DNA of 64,000 nucleotides from contig OY730415.1 of NCBI GenBank assembly GCA_963422635.1, positions 1,073,231 to 1,137,230 on the forward strand, in the 5' to 3' direction. Positions 2,005 through 36,583 of the stretch are shown here, piece after piece (the first letter of the stretch is position 1; each line of letters starts with the position of its first letter). The stretch comes from Dehalococcoidia bacterium. Lineage in GTDB: Bacteria > Chloroflexota > Dehalococcoidia > Lucifugimonadales > UBA3495. Below the pieces are notes generated by a model. The model was given only the letters and a program-made list of their open reading frames with translations, was not told where the DNA came from and did no database searches. Position numbers and translations under genes: made by a program.

Positions 2005-3141
2005 TTAAAGGAACTTCACCTTCTCATAGCTGCCGCCAACGATGGCTTGGGCGTCCATCTTGAACCAGTCCTCGATGATGGTGGTGTAGATGGAGCGGAA
2101 GTCCATATTGTAGCGAAGATTGCCGCCCTCTTCCTGCTGGCTCGGCTCCAGGGAGGGGTACTCGCCGTAGATGCCGCCCTTAACGTGGTCGCCGATGGCG
2201 AAGGCGATGCCGCCGGCGCCGTGGTCGGTGCCGGAGCCGTTGTCGCCGATGCGCCGACCAAACTCGGTGAACATCAACAGCAGGACGTTATCGTTGGCGT
2301 TGTGGTCTTTCAGGTCGGCCATAAAGGTATCCACGTTGTTGGACACATCCGACCACAGGCCGGAGTGCAAGGATGCCTGGTTAGCGTGGGTATCGAAGCT
2401 GTTATAGGGCGACGTGGTATAGAGAACCCGGCTGCCGAACTCGGCCAGATGGGTCTGGGCGATATTTTTCATGTACTGGCCGACCACCGTGGCCGAATAC
2501 TCCACGTTGGAAGTATATTTGTCCGGGGCGGTCGCCAGGATGTCGGCGCCTTTGAGAGCGTTGGTGCCCGTGCTGTGGATGTAATCCAGGACGGCGCTGC
2601 GCCCGACGGCCGGCGAATACATTCGCCCGAAAACGTCCAACGCCTGGTCCCGCTGGTTCTCCCCTTCGATGCCGGTCAGCAGGCCGTAGGTCTCCAGGTT
2701 GCCCACGGAAGCGACCGGCACGCCATCCATCACCAGGGCGCGGGGCAGGCCGCGACCGAAGTTCACGCCGGTAAGCACGTTCTCCGCTTGGGGGTCCATT
2801 TCCTTGAGCGCTCGGCCCAGCCAGCCTTCGGTGCCAATTTTATCCGGCTCGCAAGTATGCCAGATGTCCATCGAGCGGAAGTGAGAATAGCTGGGGTTGT
2901 CATAGCCCACGCCCAAGAAAATAGCCAGCTTCCCCTCGTCCCAGAACCGCTTCAACGGCCCCATAGTAGGGTGAAAACCCAGCTGGTCGTTAAGGGGGAT
3001 AACCTGGCCTTCGGGAATGCCCAGGTTGGGCCGGTAGTCCCGATACAGCGGGTTGGCATAGGGAATCACGGTGTTCAGGCCGTCATTGCCGCCCGAAAGG
3101 GAAAGAACGGCCAGTACCGGGTCTTTCTGCGTAGAAACCAT
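2005..3141 (-). CDS. DUF1501 family protein (sulfatase/alkaline-phosphatase-like fold), cassette copy 1
   Basis: Motifs LSGGNDGLNT, SHFRSMDIWHT, FDTHANQ and TEFGRR..DNGSGTDHG. Start set at the internal ATG (MVSTQKDP) to avoid overlap with the upstream gene. No Tat or Sec signal. Confidence 0.85.
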   Translation of the reverse strand: MVSTQKDPVLAVLSLSGGNDGLNTVIPYANPLYRDYRPNLGIPEGQVIPLNDQLGFHPTMGPLKRFWDEGKLAIFLGVGYDNPSYSHFRSMDIWHTCEPDKIGTEGWLGRALKEMDPQAENVLTGVNFGRGLPRALVMDGVPVASVGNLETYGLLTGIEGENQRDQALDVFGRMYSPAVGRSAVLDYIHSTGTNALKGADILATAPDKYTSNVEYSATVVGQYMKNIAQTHLAEFGSRVLYTTSPYNSFDTHANQASLHSGLWSDVSNNVDTFMADLKDHNANDNVLLLMFTEFGRRIGDNGSGTDHGAGGIAFAIGDHVKGGIYGEYPSLEPSQQEEGGNLRYNMDFRSIYTTIIEDWFKMDAQAIVGGSYEKVKFL

Positions 3142-12094: not shown

Positions 12095-13363
12095 CTACCC
12101 CGTCCCTGGGACATCGAGGGTCGGGCCGTCGCCGCCCCGGTCGGGAAAATCATCGCCCCCAACAACATTTGACGCCGGCGCCTCGCGCCGGCTGGGCTGG
12201 GCGCGAGGTCGGGAACTAGAATGAGCGCGGGGCGCCGGCGTCGCCGGTCTCGCCAACCCTTCGCCCCGCAACATCGCTTCCGGCTGCCAGTTCCCGGGAA
12301 GGTTCAGCGTCCGCATAGGGTAGTTGATAACGATGTTCTCTTCCCGGAATCGCTGATGTAATCGCTGAATTAAGGCCGAGCGCAGGTCAAACCCGGCTAT
12401 CCGGTCCCGGGCTTGCACGAACAGATAAAAATCGACGTTGGAATCATCAAAGTTCTCGAAGCCGAAATAGGCCCCGTACTCCTTCACCGCCCGGGGATCC
12501 GTTGCCAGCAGATCGGCCATAACCTCCTGACACACCCGCTCCACCAGGAAAAGGTCGCTTTCGTAGCTGACGCCGCAGGTTAGGTAAAGGTTGACCGCCG
12601 GAACTGGTCCTTGATAGTTGGTGATGATGGTTTCCGCGAAGCGCGAATTGGGAATTATCACCAGGTTGTTAGTCCAGGTGCGCAGGCGAGTGCTGCGCCA
12701 ACTGACATCCTGAACATAGCCGGCAATCCCGTTATCCAGCTCAATATAATCGCCGGTATTTACCACCCCCTCGGTCATCACATAGGTTCCGGCGAAAAGA
12801 TTTGCCAGAGTGGGTTGCAAAGCCAGGGCTACCGCCAGGCCGCTCAAGCCTAGCCCGGCGATGAGGGGGCTGATGTTGATGTTCAGCAAGTCCAGGGCCA
12901 GCAGGGCGCCCAGCCCATAAATCAGAGCCAGGGTAATCCGGCGCAACATCGGGATGAGCCGGTCGTCCAGGCTGGTTTCGGTGCGCGGCGAGACTACCTC
13001 GATGTACCACTTAAACGTATTGGAAACGGCCAGGGATACGGCAGCAACGCCCAGAATAACTGCGAAAATTCCGGCAATCCGATCGGTCAGCGTTTGCAAA
13101 GTAGAGGGCAGGTCATAGGGCAGGGTGACCGACAGATAGACCCCTAATAACACGATGCTCAGGGACAGAGGCTTGTGAAAGGCTTGCGCCAAGCGGGTGT
13201 CCAGGTTGGTAGGCGTCCACCGGGTAAGCCGCAGAACGAGCGGATAGATGAGGTAGTTAGAAATCAGGGCCAGAATTACCCCAATGGCAAAGATAACCAC
13301 CGAGGACAGGCCCAGCCCCAGCGGGCCATCCAGTCCAAAGCGAGCCAATAAGGACTCAATCAA
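12095..13363 (-). CDS. mechanosensitive ion channel (MscS family)
   Basis: N-terminal TM helices followed by the ...GDYIELDNGIAGYVQDVSWRSTRLRT..N..VIIPNS beta-domain signature. Confidence 0.85.
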   Translation of the reverse strand: MIESLLARFGLDGPLGLGLSSVVIFAIGVILALISNYLIYPLVLRLTRWTPTNLDTRLAQAFHKPLSLSIVLLGVYLSVTLPYDLPSTLQTLTDRIAGIFAVILGVAAVSLAVSNTFKWYIEVVSPRTETSLDDRLIPMLRRITLALIYGLGALLALDLLNINISPLIAGLGLSGLAVALALQPTLANLFAGTYVMTEGVVNTGDYIELDNGIAGYVQDVSWRSTRLRTWTNNLVIIPNSRFAETIITNYQGPVPAVNLYLTCGVSYESDLFLVERVCQEVMADLLATDPRAVKEYGAYFGFENFDDSNVDFYLFVQARDRIAGFDLRSALIQRLHQRFREENIVINYPMRTLNLPGNWQPEAMLRGEGLARPATPAPRAHSSSRPRAQPSRREAPASNVVGGDDFPDRGGDGPTLDVPGTG

Positions 13364-13516
13364 CTGATGCCGCTCCGCCGATAGTCGGTTCCATTAATTC
13401 GAGCAGTTACAAGGGTTTTGCGCCGCCTGCCGGAGAGCCCGGCGGGGAGTTAAACCGCGCTGGGTTGAATCGTAAAGGGCAACCCCGGCGGCAGCTCCGG
13501 TAGCCACCAGGATGTT

Positions 13517-14002
13517 CTAGCCGGTTCTAGCCGGTTCAGCCCGGTTCGGTTGCCGGCATCCGGAACACCAGCCGTAAAAATCCACCCGCTGGGAGGCTAC
13601 CTGAAAGTCGGACTCTTGAGTTACCAAGTCCAAAATCTCCGACACCGTTTCATCCCCCACGTCGGCGTCCACCACCAGACTGCAACCGACGCAGACCAGG
13701 TTGGCGTGGGGCGATAGGTTGGCGTCGTAGCGGGAAAGACGCTGGAAGGGCAGCTCCCGGACGATGCCAACCTGCTCCAGCACATCCAGCGTGGAGTAGA
13801 CGGTGGCGATGGTAACGTAGGGGAAGAAGGCCCTTACGCGTTCGTAAATGTCCTTGACCGATGGATGATCCGCCGAGTTTACCACCACTTCCGCAATCGC
13901 CAACCGCTGCGGGGTCAAACGCAGACCCAACGGCCTTAACTTGGCAACCAGTTCCTCTTGGGTCGTCACTAAGTCCTCTCCGTACCGGTGGGATGAAGTC
14001 AA
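13517..14002 (-). CDS. Fur-family transcriptional regulator
   Basis: LTPQRLAIAEVV...HPSVKDIYERV wHTH region plus CVGC...CSGC metal-site cysteines. Confidence 0.85.
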   Translation of the reverse strand: MTSSHRYGEDLVTTQEELVAKLRPLGLRLTPQRLAIAEVVVNSADHPSVKDIYERVRAFFPYVTIATVYSTLDVLEQVGIVRELPFQRLSRYDANLSPHANLVCVGCSLVVDADVGDETVSEILDLVTQESDFQVASQRVDFYGWCSGCRQPNRAEPARTG

Positions 14003-28667: not shown

Positions 28668-30524
28668 ATGGACAACTATACCAACGAAGGTATTCGAAAC
28701 CTGGCAATCATAGCGCACGTGGACCATGGCAAGACTACCCTGGTGGACGCCTTGTTAAAACAAGGCCAAGTCTTCCGGGCCAACCAGGCGGTCGGGGAGC
28801 TGATTATGGACAGCAACCCGCTAGAACGGGAGCGCGGAATTACGATTCTCGCCAAAAATACGGCAGTGCATTATCGAGGAGTGAAGATAAACATCATTGA
28901 TACGCCGGGCCACGCCGACTTCAGCGGGGAAGTGGAACGGGTAATGAACATGGCGGATGGCTGTTTGCTGCTGGTTGACGCCGTGGATGGCCCGATGCCG
29001 CAGACTCGCTACGTACTGCAACAGGCCCTCCAACGAAACGTCACTCCGATGGTCCTAATCAACAAAATAGACCGGCCCGAATCCCGCATCCCCGAGGTGG
29101 TCGAGCTGGTGCAAGACCTCTTCCTGGAACTGGCTACCCGTCCGGAGCAACTAGACTTCCCGATACTTTACGCCTCGGCCCGCCAAGGCTACGCGACTAC
29201 CGAACCAAAACAGTCCGGCCGGGATATGCAGCCCTTGTTTGAGGCAATTCTTGAAGTTATCCCGCCACCTTCGGGAGATCCGGAAGGACCTTTACAGATG
29301 CTGGTCGCTGCGCTGGACTATGACAACTACCTGGGGCAGATAGCCATCGGCCGCTTGTTTCGGGGCAACATCCACTTCCGGGAGCCGGTAGCCTTGGTTG
29401 GTCGGGCCGAAGAACCCAGGCCGGGCAACCTGGAGAAGGTGTTCGTGTTTCGAGGACTGGAGCGGCTGGAAGCCCTGGAAGCCCAAGTAGGCGACATCGT
29501 TGCGGTGTCCGGCATTGCGGACGTGTCGATTGGCGACACCATCGCCGCGCCGGACCGCCCGGAGGCATTGCCGACTATCGAGATCGACGAACCGACGGTC
29601 AAGATGACCTTCGGCGTCAACTCCTCCCCATTTATGGGTCGGGAAGGGGCGCGCTGCACCTCCCGAATGCTGCGAGAACGGCTGTTTAGAGAACTGCGCA
29701 CCAACGTCAGCTTGCGCGTAGAGGAAACCGCCAGCGCAGATGAGTTTTTAGTGTCAGGACGAGGAGAACTGCATCTATCCATATTGGTGGAAACCATGCG
29801 GCGGGAGGAGTACGAGTTCCAGGTATCCAAACCGGAACCAGTTACCAAAGTTATTGACGGGCGGGTGTACGAACCTTACGAGCAGCTTACCATACATACC
29901 CGGGAGGAATACATCGGCGCCCTGTCGGAAACCCTGTCCAATCGTTTGGCCCAGCTTACCGATATGGATAACGACGGCGCCGGCAATGTGCGTTTGGAAT
30001 ACCTGGCGCCGACGCGCGGGCTAATCGGGTTCCGCTCTTTCTTCTTGCGAACTACCCGGGGCAATGGCGTGAACAGCAGTCGGTTCGTTGAATATCAGCC
30101 AATCCGAGGTGAGGTAAAATCGTCCTTTACCCGGGCGCTGATCGCTTCGGAAGCCGGCGTCGCCGTTACCTATGGCCTGCTTAACGCCCAAGGAAGAGGG
30201 GAAACCTTCGTCGAGGCAGGCACGTCGGTTTACGAGGGTATGATTGTGGGGATGCATCCGAAAGAGGATGACATAGTAGTTAACGTATGCAAGGAAAAAA
30301 AATTGACCAATATGCGCTCGTCAACGGCGGATGTAGCCAAACGCCTCAGCCCTCCGGTCAAGATGAGTCTGGAAGAGGCGCTGGACTTTATAGCCGACGA
30401 TGAGCTGGTTGAAGTTACTCCGCTGAACTTTCGCCTGCGCAAGAAGGAACTGTCTGCTACCGTAAGGCAGCGGCAACGGCACCGCGACCGGCGCCGGGAG
30501 ACCGCCGACCGAGCAGCCGACTAG
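28668..30524 (+). CDS. typA: translational GTPase TypA/BipA
   Basis: [28 protein letters not shown] and NKID G-motifs. Length and C-terminal domain are typical of TypA. Confidence 0.9.
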
Positions 30525-31489: not shown

Positions 31490-33817
31490 ATGCTCGACTA
31501 CAAACCAAACTTGGTGCTATCTACCCAGGAATATGACGTAGTGGGAACCAGGCCCATCCGCCACGATGGCCCGGACAAGGTTATGGGGCGGGCGCGCTAT
31601 GCCGCCGACATTCACTTGACCGGGATGCTGCACGGCAAAATCCTGCGTAGCCCCCATTCCCACGCCCGCATCCGAAGTATCGACGCCCGCCAGGCCCTGG
31701 CTCTACCCGGCGTGGTGGCGGTGGTTACTGCCGCCGACTTTCCGGAGGTTTCCGCCGAAGCCTCGGACTTGTCCGAGGGCGCCAATGTCAACTACGGCTT
31801 TTACAGCCGCAACGTTATGGCCCGGGAAAAGGCGCTTTACAAAGGCCATGCCGTGGCCGCCGTCGCCGCCACCAGTCCCCACTTGGCCGAGGAAGCTCTA
31901 GCTCTGATTGACGTGAACTATGAGTCGTTGCCCCCGGTATTAAACGCCGAAGATGCCCTGGCTGAAAATGCGCCCCTGCTTCACGAGCGGCTGGTTACCT
32001 TCGATTCTCCGGGAATGCGTCCTGGCGGCTGGGGCGACCAATCCGCCCCGGTTTCCAACCTGGCTAACCGCTTCGAGTTTCGCCTCGGCGATCTGGAACC
32101 GGGCTTTGCCGAAGCTGACGTGGTGGTGGAGCGAGAGTTTCATACCCGCCCGGTGCACCAAGGCTACATTGAACCCCATTCCGCCACCGCCCAGTGGAAT
32201 ACCGACGACTCGGTAACCATCTGGGCCAGCAGCCAGGGCCACTTCGCCCTGCGCGACCATACCTCCACCATTATGGGCTTGCCCGTTTCCAAAGTTAAAA
32301 TTATCCCGATGGAAATCGGCGGCGGCTTTGGCGGCAAGGGTATGGGCGGCTGCTATCTGGAGCCGGTGGTGGCTGCGCTTTCCCGAAAAAGCGGCCAGCC
32401 GGTCAAAATTGCGATGTCTCGCAACGAGGTCTTCCTGGGCACCGGCCCGGCGCCGGCAACCCACATGAAGGTAAAAGTCGGAGCTACCAACGACGGCCGG
32501 ATTACCGCCGCCGAAGCTCACCTGACTTACGAAGCCGGCGCCTTCCCCGGCTCGCCGGTAGCCTCCGCCTGCCGCACCATGTTCGCCCCCTACGACATCC
32601 CCAACGGCTGGGTTGAAGGGCTGGACGTGGTGGTCAACACCCAAAAGTCGGCGGCCTACCGGGCGCCCGGTTCCCCCACCGCCGCCTTTGCCGCCGAGTC
32701 GGTATTGGACGAGGTATGCGAGAAAATCGGGATGGACCCGGTGGAATTTCGCCGGCTCAACGCCGCCAAAGAAGGCGACCGGCAGATAACCGGCCCCACC
32801 TTCCGCAAAATCGGGATGCTGGAACTGTGCCAGGCGGCCCAACAACACCCCCACCTGGCCGCGCCTCTGGCGGGCAAAAACCGGGGCCGGGGCGTCGCCG
32901 CCGGCTGCTGGATGAACGGCACCGGCCCGGCCAGCGCCGTCGCCAGCGTCAACCCGGACGGCACCGTCAGCCTGGTGGAAGGCTCGCCGGACATCGGCGG
33001 CAGCCGAGCCGCCATGGCAATGCACATCGCTGAAGTCTTGGGCATTGCCGCCGAGGACGTGAAGCCTTCCATCGCCGACACCGATTCCATCGGCTACAGC
33101 TCCGGCGCCGGCGGCAGCGGCGTTACCTTCAAGATGGGTACGGCGGTCTATCAGGCGGCGGAGGACATCAAGCGCCAGATGGTCGAGCGCGCCGCCAAAA
33201 TCTGGGATGTGGCCGTTGCGGACGTGGAATATAACAAGGGAAAGCTCAGCCACAAGTCCGACTCGGAGTTGAGCATGACCTTTAACCAACTGGCGCGGCG
33301 GCTCAACGGCAGCGGCGGCCCCATCGTAGGGCGGGCTACGGCCAACCCGCCGGGCGTAGGCAACGCCTTTGGCCTGCACATCGTGGATGTGGAAGTTGAC
33401 CGGGACACCGGCAAGGTGGACGTGCTGCGCTATACCGCCTTGCAGGATGCGGGCAAAGCCATCCACCCCAGCTACGTGGAAGGGCAGATTCAGGGTGGCG
33501 CCGTTCAGGGCATCGGCTGGGCGCTCAACGAGGAGTATTACGTGGACGGCGAAGGGTTAATGGTCAACTCCAGCTTCCTCGACTACCGGATGCCCACCAG
33601 CCTGGACTTGCCGATGATTGACACGGTGATTGTGGAGGTTGCCAACCCCGGCCATCCGTTGGGCGTCCGGGGCGTGGGTGAGGTATCCCTGGTGCCGCCC
33701 ATGGCCGCTGTCGCCAACGCCATCTACGACGCCGTAGGTCTGCGGCTGAGCGACCTCCCCATGAACTCGGCCAATATCCTGGAAGCCAAGTGGCGGCAGG
33801 AAAGCGGAGTAGAGTAG
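31490..33817 (+). CDS. xanthine dehydrogenase/aldehyde oxidase-family molybdopterin-binding subunit
   Basis: 775 aa. N-terminal a/b-hammerhead region (GKILRSPHSHARI), GGGFGGKG and C-terminal MoCo-binding regions. No adjacent FeS or FAD subunit genes. Confidence 0.85.
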   Translation: MLDYKPNLVLSTQEYDVVGTRPIRHDGPDKVMGRARYAADIHLTGMLHGKILRSPHSHARIRSIDARQALALPGVVAVVTAADFPEVSAEASDLSEGANVNYGFYSRNVMAREKALYKGHAVAAVAATSPHLAEEALALIDVNYESLPPVLNAEDALAENAPLLHERLVTFDSPGMRPGGWGDQSAPVSNLANRFEFRLGDLEPGFAEADVVVEREFHTRPVHQGYIEPHSATAQWNTDDSVTIWASSQGHFALRDHTSTIMGLPVSKVKIIPMEIGGGFGGKGMGGCYLEPVVAALSRKSGQPVKIAMSRNEVFLGTGPAPATHMKVKVGATNDGRITAAEAHLTYEAGAFPGSPVASACRTMFAPYDIPNGWVEGLDVVVNTQKSAAYRAPGSPTAAFAAESVLDEVCEKIGMDPVEFRRLNAAKEGDRQITGPTFRKIGMLELCQAAQQHPHLAAPLAGKNRGRGVAAGCWMNGTGPASAVASVNPDGTVSLVEGSPDIGGSRAAMAMHIAEVLGIAAEDVKPSIADTDSIGYSSGAGGSGVTFKMGTAVYQAAEDIKRQMVERAAKIWDVAVADVEYNKGKLSHKSDSELSMTFNQLARRLNGSGGPIVGRATANPPGVGNAFGLHIVDVEVDRDTGKVDVLRYTALQDAGKAIHPSYVEGQIQGGAVQGIGWALNEEYYVDGEGLMVNSSFLDYRMPTSLDLPMIDTVIVEVANPGHPLGVRGVGEVSLVPPMAAVANAIYDAVGLRLSDLPMNSANILEAKWRQESGVE

Positions 33818-33946: not shown

Positions 33947-35411
33947 CTAAAGTCTGCCGATGAAATCCCGGTATTCCCGGTTGCCGAAATTTACCCGAAC
34001 CCATTCGGCCCATTTCGCCGCTTTGCTCTGGGTCAACTTGGCTCTCGCCTCATCTTTCATCCACTTGACGCCGGCCTTCTTATTTTCCGCCATCAGACCA
34101 ATCAAGGTGAAGTGATTTCGTTTCCTCCCGTTGCAAGGACGGCAGAGCAAGATGCGGTTGAGGATATGGTTGGCGCCCCGGCCAGACTTGGGGGTGATAT
34201 GGTCTAACTCCATAAACTCCCGCTCCAACTCCCGCCCGCAGCCGGCGCAGACTACCCCATCCGTCGCAGCTTGAGCGGCGGACAGGATGCGGGTTATATC
34301 AGCTCGGGACAGTTTCTCCCACGGTTCCGGCTCCCGCTGCGCCTTCAACTTCAAATCGGGAACTGGGGAAGTTTCAGCGTAATCAGTGCGCTCCGGCGGG
34401 TCAGTCAGCTTGACCACTTCCGGCGGGATCTCGGTTAACAACTGGCGACTATCGTTGAGCCGCTGCGCCACCAGGTCATAAGCGCCCTCCCAAACGTCGA
34501 TGCCAATCCACCGGCGGCCCAGCCGTTCCGCCGCCACCGGGGTAGTGGCGCAGCCGCAGAAGGGGTCAAGAACCATATCACCAGGGTTGCTGCTGGCCTG
34601 GATGATGCGCTCGTACAGGGCCAGCGGTTTTTGGGTGGGGTAGCCGGTACGTTCAATGTCCGTGGAGCCTATGTAAGAGATGTCCCATACATCTCTCATA
34701 TTGACCAAGTTGTAAACCCCTTCTTTGTCTTCAAAGAATTCTGCATTGCCACTGCCATAGTTGATTATGCCAGGTCTGCGGCTTTTTGACTTGGTGTACG
34801 CTTTCTCTTTCTGGAGGTTGAAGGCGTAGTGACTGTTCAATGAGTAAAACAGTATCGTATCGTGCTTTCGGGAGAAGTTACTCCTGCTTGCGCCGCCAGT
34901 CTTGTATGACCACACAACCTCATTCCGGAAGTTCTTGCGGCCAAAAATCCCGTCCAGCAGACACTTAACGTAGGCATGGGCGGTATGGTCGATGTGGAGA
35001 TAAAGGCTGCCAGTGTCCTTCAGTACTCGGTGGCACTCCAGTAGGCGGACGCCCAACCAGCAGAGGAAGGCGGCCATATCCTCGCCGGAAGCCGCCCGGG
35101 CGGCTTCGATTACCGCCCAAACTGGGGGCCAATCGTCCTGGATGGCGTCCACCCATTCCTGGTGCACATCCCGATCCCAACGCCAGCGGTCTTCGAACCG
35201 GGCGCCCTTTGCCAGGCTGTTGGGGGTGGCGTGAAAATCCCTGCTCTTGTTAAAGGGAGGGTCGGTGGCGATGAGGTCAATGGTGGCGGAGTTTATACCC
35301 CTTAAAACGGCGAGGTTGTCGCAATGGTATAAAGTTCGGTTGGCCGGTTGGCCCGGCTTTCCGGCTTTCCGCTTTCCGCTTTCCGCTTTCCGCTACGTAA
35401 TCATTCAACAT
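33947..35411 (-). CDS. N4/N6 DNA methyltransferase fused to a C-terminal HNH nuclease domain; ATG (35411) currently out of frame with the body
   Basis: The body frame (open from 35392) encodes ...IDLIATDPPFN (motif IV), DPFCGCATT (motif I) and CAGCG...DHITPK...N...LLCRPCNGRK (HNH). It has no ATG/GTG/TTG upstream of DPPF. The only ATG with an RBS-like AGG..GGA lies in the frame reached by removing one 7-nt repeat unit. Confidence 0.8.
35357..35392 (-). repeat. heptanucleotide simple-sequence repeat (coding strand CGGAAAG x4 plus one CCGGAAAG)
   Basis: Plus strand CTTTCCGG CTTTCCG x4. Lies between the ATG and the DPPF motif of the methyltransferase. Confidence 0.95.
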
Positions 35412-35683
35412 ATCAAATTTCCTGACCTATTTCAACTAACCCGGCTCGGCCGGCGCATTGTCGGGTTAGTCGAATGGCAGTTGCGTAAATCTGCCGCCGA
35501 GTTAGTTTACTGAGGAACGGAAACCGGGTCAATCGCCTTCCGTCATTCTCCTTCCGCTCTTTCCGTCATCATCTTTGAGGCAGCAATGACGGAGAAGCTG
35601 GGCATAACGCCGCGGGCCTACAACCCCGGCCCTGACATATCAGGAGAAGTGGAGTATAATGAACCGCAAGCGAGCAAAGGGAT

Positions 35684-36583
35684 ATGACCTCCATTAACGA
35701 CATTACCGATTTTGTGCGGATTATCCGCGAACAGCCCGAATGGGCGGATACGATTCGCGGCATACTACTGGGACAGGAACTCCTGTCCTTGCCTGGCCGG
35801 TTCGCCGCTTTTGTTGAACTGACCGAGCAAAACTTCCGGTTAATTCACGAACGGCTGGGCCGACTGGAAGAAGATGTGGCGGCCCTCAAGGAAGATGTAT
35901 CCGGCCTCAAAGAAGATGTGGCGGCCCTCAAGGAAGATGTATCCGGCCTCAAAGAAGATGTGGCGGCCCTCAAGGAAGATGTATCCGGCCTCAAAGAAGA
36001 TGTGGCGGCCCTCAAAGAAGATGTATCCGGCCTCAAAGAAGATGTGGCGGCCCTCAAGGAAGATGTATCTGGCCTCAAAGCTGGTTTCAGCCGGCTCGAA
36101 AACAAACTCGATACCAGCGTGAACCAAATCAACGGAAGACTGGACAATGCATTCGGTATGAACTACGAAGCCAAAGTAGAGAAGAACATTCGTAGCCTCG
36201 CCGGGCAGCAAATCAAACTGCGCCGCGTTCAAATTCAAAAGGGAAGAGCTTTCACTGACCTGAACGCCGATATGGAAGAGCAGCTGAACTTGGCAGAAGA
36301 GAGCGGACGCATCTCCCCCGAGGAATATAACGATATTCTCTTGCTGGACCTGATTATTACCGGCAGACGGCGGGGTGAAGACTCGGCCAGGTGGGTCGGG
36401 GCTGAAATATCTATCACCATTGGCGATAACGACATCAACCGGGCCGTCCGACGCTCCCGGCTGCTGGCCGTGGGCCTCGACCAGTCGGTGATACCCGCCG
36501 TAATCGGTTCTCATATTGACGAAACCCGGAGCGCGCTGGCCGAAGCCAACGACGTTGTCGTAATGCTCCTCCCCGACGAATAA
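35684..36583 (+). CDS. coiled-coil repeat protein with a C-terminal domain of unknown function (possible PD-(D/E)xK-like core)
   Basis: 299-aa ORF with five EDVAALKEDVSGLK repeats. The C-terminal LLLDLIITG...GAEISITIGDNDINRAVRRS pattern is tentatively nuclease-like. Confidence 0.7.
   Translation: MTSINDITDFVRIIREQPEWADTIRGILLGQELLSLPGRFAAFVELTEQNFRLIHERLGRLEEDVAALKEDVSGLKEDVAALKEDVSGLKEDVAALKEDVSGLKEDVAALKEDVSGLKEDVAALKEDVSGLKAGFSRLENKLDTSVNQINGRLDNAFGMNYEAKVEKNIRSLAGQQIKLRRVQIQKGRAFTDLNADMEEQLNLAEESGRISPEEYNDILLLDLIITGRRRGEDSARWVGAEISITIGDNDINRAVRRSRLLAVGLDQSVIPAVIGSHIDETRSALAEANDVVVMLLPDE
35870..36079 (+). repeat. 42-bp in-frame tandem repeat x5 (14 aa, two heptads per unit)
   Basis: Three units are identical and two differ by one synonymous base each. 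Confidence 0.95.

Follow-up and report, generated by a model that had tools for sequence, protein, structure and literature searches.

Repeat-mediated switching of DNA methyltransferases has precedents in three classes of restriction-modification system, namely Type III (PMC5909438), Type I (PMC7383803) and Type IIG, the last represented by cj0031 (PMC4889913). Among Type III systems, 17.4% of the mod genes in REBASE carry repeats, some environmental species included (PMC5909438). [quoted passage not shown] Here we analyse a gene predicted to encode a single-chain beta-class amino-methyltransferase (MTase) that carries an HNH nuclease domain at its C-terminus, located on the minus strand of a stretch of 64,000 nucleotides (nt), hereafter the window, from a Dehalococcoidia bacterium (Chloroflexota; assembly GCA_963422635.1, contig OY730415.1, positions 1,073,231-1,137,230). 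A tract of heptanucleotide repeats lies between the start codon and the conserved body of this gene, and we consider it probable (roughly 0.8) that the locus is subject to classical repeat-mediated phase variation by slipped-strand mispairing, with the sequenced allele in the OFF state.

The initial annotation proposed that a heptamer repeat puts the MTase-HNH gene out of frame, and the reading of the locus agrees with it. On the minus strand, ATG(35411) TTG AAT GAT TAC GTA G (the sequence after the ATG being TTGAATGATTACGTAG) is followed by four perfect copies of CGGAAAG and then by CCGGAAAG, which comprises an extra C (35364) and a fifth CGGAAAG (35363-35357); downstream of this fifth copy the strand continues CCGGGCCAACCGGCCAACCGAAC. 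Alternatively, CCGGAAAG can be read as an overlapping octamer, CGGAAAGC x2.4, whose copies start at 35371 within the fourth heptamer. The frame of ATG 35411 reads MLNDYVAESGKRKAESRKAGPTGQPNFIPLRQPRRFKGYKLRHH and ends at a TGA after 44 amino acids (aa; open reading frame 35411-35277). The body frame lies at +1 relative to it and extends over 481 codons (35392-33947, with its stop at 33947-33949) with zero internal stops, encoding ...NRTLYHCDNLAVLRGINSATIDLIATDPPFN.... Immediately upstream of the tract this frame is shut by a TAG (35395-35393), and its earliest ATG, GTG or TTG is GTG 35167 at codon 76, past the DPPF motif at codons 44-47; the public gene call (P0001, 406 aa) begins at this GTG and the motif is missing from it. 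Before codon 76 only ATA, ATT and ATC occur (codons 33, 38 and 41), all inside a conserved N-terminal segment in which N26, G32 and N34 are invariant among 59 homologues, and without an upstream Shine-Dalgarno sequence. ATG 35411 stands 148 nt (148 modulo 3 = 1) from the D codon of DPPF, so that the loss of one heptamer (141 nt), the gain of two heptamers (162 nt) or the gain of one octamer (156 nt) would restore the frame; without the extra C at 35364 the distance would be 147 nt, also in frame. The open body frame from 35392, the lack of an ATG, GTG or TTG ahead of DPPF, the 44-codon product and the frame arithmetic had all been put forward at the outset and are confirmed. Judged by its sequence, the allele is OFF, the full enzyme not being reached from the only usable start. 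The features of the switch region are as follows.

35504..35532, minus strand: candidate promoter (TTGACC, 17-nt spacer, TAAACT) about 93 nt 5' of the start, from a consensus scan with a match of only 9/12, which is not evidence of function
35418..35437, minus strand: leader element AGTTGAAATAGGTCAGGAAA, conserved, in which a Shine-Dalgarno-like AGGA precedes the ATG by 6 nt; aligns with AAAAAGTTGAAAAAGGGAGGAAA of orthologous loci
35393..35411, minus strand: start ATG (35411-35409) and leader codons MLNDYV, with the body-frame stop TAG inside
35365..35392, minus strand: (CGGAAAG)x4, a perfect heptanucleotide tract and the switch at which slippage is predicted
35357..35364, minus strand: CCGGAAAG, the extra C and fifth heptamer, from sequence reading
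35337..35353, minus strand: second octamer repeat, (GGCCAACC)x2.1, found by TRF and coding for part of the GQPAN linker
35277..35411, minus strand: out-of-frame product from the true start, 44 codons and then TGA, from the list of open reading frames
35252-35263, minus strand: DPPF motif (codons 44-47)
33947..35392, minus strand: intact MTase-HNH body frame, 481 codons and stop, with homologues 56-69% identical

TRF reports a period of 7 with 5.4 copies and 96% matches at 35356-35394, and no other tract in the window has more than four copies of a unit with a length not divisible by three. When a pattern of three units, two mismatches being allowed, was searched for in 100 dinucleotide-preserving shuffles, each gave 0 matches, and the tract is therefore not a chance feature. 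Its placement is that of a contingency gene, with a tandem repeat of a unit that is not a multiple of three inside the reading frame, between ATG 35411 and the conserved body.

To see how this site behaves in related genomes, we compared thirteen fetched contigs, which represent twelve distinct loci (L084 and L085 are identical and were counted once), and called the state of each allele from the distance between the ATG and the D codon of DPPF modulo 3. At least ten of these relatives sit at a single syntenic site, preceded by proB, proA and a reading frame of 101 aa, and most of them then have small reading frames and transketolase genes downstream. All share the upstream element AAAAAGTTGAAAAAGGGAGGAAA (common pattern AGTTGAAA.AGG..AGGAAA in the twelve distinct loci), the same ATG and a leader M-[LV]-N-D-F, corresponding to AGTTGAAATAGGTCAGGAAA and MLNDY in the window; the leader M-[LV]-N-D-[FY] is also kept in the proteins P0003, P0004, P0006, P0010, P0121 and P0242. 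The recurrence of ATG, element and leader in all twelve loci bears out the assignment of ATG 35411 as the start. The alleles are given below as unit and copy number, locus, distance and state.

CGGAAAG x3: L087, 176 nt, OFF
CGGAAAG x4 (+1): window, 148 nt, OFF
CGGAAAG x6: L086, 152 nt, OFF
ACGGAAA x5: L092, 145 nt, OFF
ACGGAAA x7: L090, 219 nt, ON
ACGGAAT x6: L001, 159 nt, ON
GTTACGG x3: L084 = L085, 155 nt, OFF
GCAAGCGC x1: L083, 120 nt, ON
GCAAGCGC x3: L089, 136 nt, OFF
GCAAGCGC x4: P0121 (protein only), no distance, ON
GCAAGCGC x5: L091, 152 nt, OFF
GCAAGCGC x7: L004, 168 nt, ON
GCAAGCTC x7: L002, 168 nt, ON
GCAAGCTC x at least 8, with a 100-N scaffold gap in the tract: L414 (1272-1455), no distance and no state

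Tract lengths differ by whole units within single unit types (GCAAGCGC x1, 3, 4, 5 and 7; CGGAAAG x3, 4(+1) and 6; ACGGAAA x5 and 7). The GCAAGCGC alleles differ in the tract segment only by unit number, copies of 1, 4 and 7 being in frame and copies of 3 and 5 out of frame, and one 90%-identity protein cluster combines a one-unit member (P0006, ON), a seven-unit member (P0242, ON) and a three-unit member (P0241, OFF, called from an internal Met). These changes in length toggle an otherwise intact frame: in all six distinct OFF relatives the body frames, of 468-590 codons, are open through the HNH motif, as is the body in the window. Among the OFF alleles, +1 and +2 offsets are both represented. 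In the closest homologues the tract site appears as a peptide repeat with a period of 7 or 8 aa, as in the N-terminus MVNDFV(TEYGIRN)x2 of P0003 and MLNDF(ASSQARKL)x2 of P0004 and P0010, such peptides being 7- or 8-nt DNA repeats read through three phases ((ACGGAAT)x6 in L001 and (GCAAGCTC)x7 in L002). The type of unit also changes between close relatives: P0027 and P0033 are 98% identical over 441 residues, with a heptamer tract in the former and an octamer tract, broken by a scaffold gap, in the latter. At the level of the loci, L414 has (GCAAGCTC) in at least eight copies with the gap, and L092, with a 98% identical body, has (ACGGAAA)x5. The tract of L414 was thus not closed by the assembler, which is suggestive of a long or heterogeneous tract. 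Taken together, copy numbers and frame states at the same site in the relatives support, on comparative sequence grounds, the proposal of the initial annotation that this is a phase-variable gene.

The body frame is predicted to encode both activities of a restriction-modification enzyme in one chain. Its N-terminal part matches the Pfam family N6_N4_Mtase (PF01555; E=2.7e-47, 162 bits against a cut-off of 26.7, residues 38-308 of 481), with DPP[YF] ahead of FxGxG as in beta-class enzymes and a Rossmann-like MTase fold in the model; the C-terminal part matches HNH (PF01844; E=2.1e-8, 34.6 bits against a cut-off of 21.4, residues 382-426). By sequence, the closest solved structures are M.BceJIV, M.RsrI, M.MboIIA and CcrM, all beta-class, followed by Type III Mod subunits. 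An AlphaFold model built from 59 homologues (mean pLDDT 83.9, pTM 0.67, with pLDDT 94-98 over most of the HNH domain) retrieved M.BceJIV, M.MboIIA and M.RsrI in Foldseek at E=1e-17 to 1e-14 (M.BceJIV, E=1e-17). Across these homologues C382, C385, D397, N412, C417 and C420 are invariant and H398 and N421 at least 90% conserved, and the conserved residues include both CxxC pairs and the D-H...N...N catalytic residues. PADLOC and NCBIfam gave only generic Type II/III methyltransferase matches or scores below cut-off. The coding features of the enzyme are as follows.

34469..35281, minus strand: beta-class amino-methyltransferase domain (N6_N4_Mtase), from Pfam, with sequence matches in the PDB to M.RsrI, M.MboIIA and M.BceJIV
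34649..34909, minus strand: central variable region, the presumed target-recognition domain, of low pairwise identity in 16 leader-clade proteins
34541-34567, minus strand: FxGxG motif (DPFCGCATT), codons 276-284
34115..34249, minus strand: C-terminal HNH nuclease domain (CAGC ... DH ... N ... CRPC N), from Pfam and conserved residues

Mean pairwise identities among the 16 leader-clade proteins indicate a mosaic organisation. While the N-terminal catalytic part is 88% identical and the C-terminal part, including the HNH domain, 79%, the central region between FRNE.VW and TGYPTQKP falls to 25% (range 6-98%), and at least nine unrelated types of differing lengths are found among the 16 proteins, at one syntenic locus. 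Conserved ends therefore surround a variable central target-recognition domain, as in phasevarions, and the same pattern has been described for phase-variable mod alleles (PMC5909438). In its central region the window protein is similar to P0005, a paralogue that belongs to the repeat-less MAEPNF clade, which suggests that specificity domains are exchanged among paralogues.

We propose that expression of this enzyme is gated by a hypermutable repeat lying after the start codon and ahead of the first conserved residues. Slipped-strand mispairing at replication, which we infer as the mutational mechanism, would add or remove whole 7-nt units (8-nt units at the junction), and because neither 7 nor 8 is a multiple of three, each change would shift the body relative to the fixed start frame and so move it into or out of frame. 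One unit fewer or two more would yield MLNDYVAESGKRKAGKPGQPANRTLYHCDNL... and the full enzyme. Provided that switching is reversible at high frequency within a clone, as we would expect, a population would be a reversible mixture of cells with and without a given methylation and restriction specificity. The pay-off could lie in bet-hedging against phage and foreign DNA, and possibly in epigenetic switching of gene expression as well.

Three other explanations deserve weighing against phase variation. That the gene is a recently inactivated pseudogene, decaying after a frameshift which the repeat caused or accompanied, is suggested by the out-of-frame allele of the window, by a perfect tract of just four units interrupted by an extra C, and by the many family paralogues that are fragments of 150-275 aa on megabase contigs, gene loss being common in the family. 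A decaying gene, however, sits poorly with a 481-codon body that has acquired neither a stop nor a second frameshift, with conserved catalytic and zinc-binding residues, with intact bodies in all six distinct OFF relatives, and with an alternation of ON and OFF that follows unit number inside one unit type and one 90%-identity cluster; we regard decay as unlikely. The assembly or consensus could instead be wrong and the true tract in frame, tandem repeats being error-prone and the tract of L414 holding a 100-N scaffold gap. But the window tract spans only 36 nt on a 2.64-Mb contig, among relatives assembled independently from different samples both ON and OFF counts occur and are whole units apart, and L084 (an ENA assembly) equals L085 (a Logan assembly of another run) base for base, all of which leaves such an error with very little probability.

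The enzyme might also be made despite the frameshift, through programmed ribosomal frameshifting, transcriptional slippage or a non-canonical start. The A-rich CGGAAAG repeats could in principle permit slippage of RNA polymerase or the ribosome, and the ATA, ATT and ATC codons of the body frame offer candidate alternative starts. Recoding would nevertheless require a +1 (or -2) shift, for which there is neither a recognised +1 signal nor an in-phase X XXY YYZ slippery site, and ON homologues read straight through the repeat. OFF relatives stand at +1 and +2 offsets with unrelated unit sequences, so that no single recoding event explains them. The near-cognate codons, for their part, lie within the conserved N-terminal segment and lack a Shine-Dalgarno sequence, and the TAG just before the tract closes the body frame. 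Expression of this kind appears most improbable.

Several observations nevertheless weigh against phase variation as the explanation for the window itself. Its perfect tract has only four units, and short tracts switch slowly; the extra C interrupts the array, and the OFF state can equally be described as a 1-nt insertion into a five-unit in-frame array. Switching back through the four-unit run would still be possible, probably at a modest rate. The evidence from unit numbers comes from relatives, the window protein being a singleton in the protein database, and the window gene, about 65% identical to them overall, stands in a genomic context other than that of the syntenic loci. A strict leader DNA pattern, searched in genome contigs for a second strain of the window species, gave zero matches, and a relaxed pattern matched only one other, already known genome, with zero matches in JGI metagenomes; neither pattern turned up a second strain. 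Most relatives are short-read metagenome scaffolds in which repeat counts may be mis-assembled, yet their tracts are at most 60 nt and the differences are in whole units. Finally, we know of no activity, methylation motif or regulon established for this MTase-HNH family.

The family as a whole is large. In the protein search 7,999 of the 8,000 scored candidates were significant, and nearly all of the best 120 have the two-domain architecture. The best 80 genomic relatives all come from metagenome-assembled genomes and almost all from Chloroflexota (Dehalococcoidia, SAR202, Anaerolineae, Phototrophicaceae and Aggregatilineales), the others being one member of the Acidimicrobiales and two titled only 'bacterium'. 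Among these loci, 77 of 80 encode a short N-terminus (MAEPNF.NRTLYHGDNL) without a repeat, and several genomes carry three to five paralogues. Searching the proteins again with the conserved N-terminal 158 aa yielded mostly short fragments, P0121 and P0195 being the sole informative alleles added. Single genomes were seen to hold up to four or five full-length paralogues, with the repeat in at most one. N-terminal fragments of the family (150-275 aa) are often called on megabase-size contigs, and split or decayed paralogues are common.

Three distant members carry other repeats at the same place. In L093, (AAGTC)x16 at 3010-3089 is read as (SSQVK)x5 between the start and NRTL(F/Y)H; L011, from an Acidimicrobiales genome, has (GA)x15 at 2943-2972 and L079 has (GA)x10 at 2961-2980, both at the same position and out of frame with the ATG. 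Repeats therefore arose repeatedly at the 5' end of genes of this family. The heptamer itself was considered as a diagnostic of the gene and rejected: scans for (CGGAAWR)x3 matched more than 240 unrelated loci, and among the matches listed none adjoined a homologue by tblastn. These listed loci, in genomes and metagenomes of Acidobacteriota, Bacteroidota, Planctomycetota and other phyla, hold CGGAAWR arrays of 3-13 copies.

As to the source of the window, its BipA/TypA protein (28668-30524) shares 89-90% identity with its counterparts in two metagenome-assembled Dehalococcoidia genomes, and 71-82% with many more, SAR202 bins among them. The isolate names of some relatives (RHO, COS, CAR and APA bins) match sponge species sampled by Robbins et al., who found restriction-modification genes enriched in sponge symbionts (PMC8163846), and a sponge-associated origin is plausible on the strength of these names. 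A wider proposition, which could be right or wrong with about equal chance, is that a whole clade of Dehalococcoidia, uncultivated and probably living in association with sponges, operates a contingency locus of pathogen type, as do some relatives among the Acidimicrobiales and Anaerolineae by convergence. The locus would encode an uncharacterised single-chain methyltransferase-HNH restriction-modification enzyme, its specificity domain exchanged between strains and its 5' repeat re-invented with 7-, 8-, 5- and 2-nt units under selection for switchability. With nuclease and methylase on the same chain, a single slippage event would toggle defence and self-marking together.

Automated annotation treats such alleles poorly. 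In two OFF relatives, L084 and L091, a chance ATG lies in the body frame 5' of the ribosome-binding site, and the corresponding gene calls are over-long (P0009, 521 aa; P0015, 584 aa), with the repeat read in the wrong phase. Gene callers either truncate the product (406 aa here) or extend it to spurious upstream starts, so that OFF alleles are systematically mis-annotated and the switch is hidden in annotations.

The neighbourhood of the gene in the window was also surveyed. The convergent neighbour at 31490-33817 has a 775-aa frame whose product we take, from its sequence, to resemble a molybdenum hydroxylase. On the other side lies a divergent gene.

35684-36583, plus strand: divergent coiled-coil protein, 299 aa, with only coiled-coil look-alikes in Pfam

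This gene contains an in-frame 42-nt x5.1 tandem repeat at 35868-36080 (98% matches), read (EDVAALKEDVSGLK)n, and Pfam searches with its N- and C-terminal parts gave no domain. It was considered as part of the system and rejected, being absent from the loci of the relatives. Elsewhere in the window, a 10-nt x3.4 repeat (13514-13547) lies about 150 nt upstream of a gene for an MscS-like channel (12095-13363, minus strand), and (GCAAC)x4 (61861-61880) some 155 nt upstream of a gene for an ABC transporter (minus strand, 59717-61705); these two could be further repeat-controlled promoters, or chance. Longer repeats comprise a 64-nt x2.5 array (98%) at 21498-21655 beside a tRNA gene (21696-21769) and a perfect 71-nt x2.4 array at 59392-59560. 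Another tRNA gene (55211-55285) has a DDE transposase gene (55890-57161) as its neighbour.

Compared with described systems, the locus is closest in its switch to the Type III mod genes (PMC5909438), which likewise have a 5' coding repeat whose unit is not a multiple of three and are turned ON and OFF by gain or loss of units. Shared too are an allelic specificity domain in the centre with conserved N- and C-terminal parts on either side, repeat units that vary by allele or lineage, and a beta-class amino-methyltransferase fold, the predicted model also matching the Mod subunits of EcoP15I, Mbo45V and 6k0w. The units here are, however, of 7-8 nt, against mostly 1-5 nt in mod genes, the host is an uncultivated Dehalococcoidia rather than a host-adapted pathogen, and the HNH nuclease is in the same chain. 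No Res (helicase-nuclease) gene adjoins the MTase gene in the window or in the relatives, whose listed neighbours (proB, proA, small frames and transketolase) include none of helicase type; without an adjacent res gene, the locus is no Type III system. Among Type I systems, hsdM and hsdS genes that carry simple sequence repeats (PMC7383803) offer another case of a repeat-controlled restriction-modification component, and such genes are widespread, non-pathogens included, but they belong to multi-subunit HsdR/HsdM/HsdS enzymes with a gamma-class methyltransferase and no fused nuclease.

M.RsrI, M.MboIIA, M.BceJIV and CcrM give the best sequence and fold matches for residues ~20-310 and have DPP[FY] before FxGxG; they are stand-alone enzymes without an HNH domain, the variable insert is much larger in the window enzyme, and they are not among the phase-variable methyltransferases in the literature searched. 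All precedents in that literature were of Type I, Type III or Type IIG, in agreement with the initial annotation, which knew of no description of such switching in this kind of organism or in an MTase-HNH fusion; the searches turned up no account of phase variation in bacteria that are sponge-associated or belong to the Dehalococcoidia, nor in such a fusion, although coverage was partial and this is weak evidence.

The Type IIG enzyme cj0031 of Campylobacter jejuni is switched by a poly-G tract and pairs an N-terminal PD-(D/E)XK nuclease with a gamma-class methyltransferase. Like it, the present gene would join nuclease and methyltransferase in one polypeptide and place a repeat within the gene that toggles the whole enzyme (PMC4889913); unlike it, the gene has a beta-class methyltransferase, an HNH nuclease at the C-terminal end and units of 7-8 nt. 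The resemblance to single-chain Type IIG/IIC enzymes exists at the domain level only, both domains lying in one open frame, and the usual architecture, in which a C-terminal recognition domain comes after nuclease and methyltransferase (MmeI or BpuSI type), was not found: a beta-class N-terminal methyltransferase, with the recognition insert inside it, is followed by the HNH domain. With these in place of PD-(D/E)XK and gamma-class domains, the enzyme is not a typical Type IIG.

The mechanism is therefore a known one, and what appear to be new are the architecture of a beta-class methyltransferase with a C-terminal HNH domain, the taxon, and the way in which units of 7 and 8 bases turn over. 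The rapid turnover of repeat types at one fixed site points to selection for mutability itself, and the comparative evidence from natural populations suggests that an uncultivated environmental or symbiotic lineage of Chloroflexota uses the same strategy as the phase-variable methyltransferases of small-genome pathogens.

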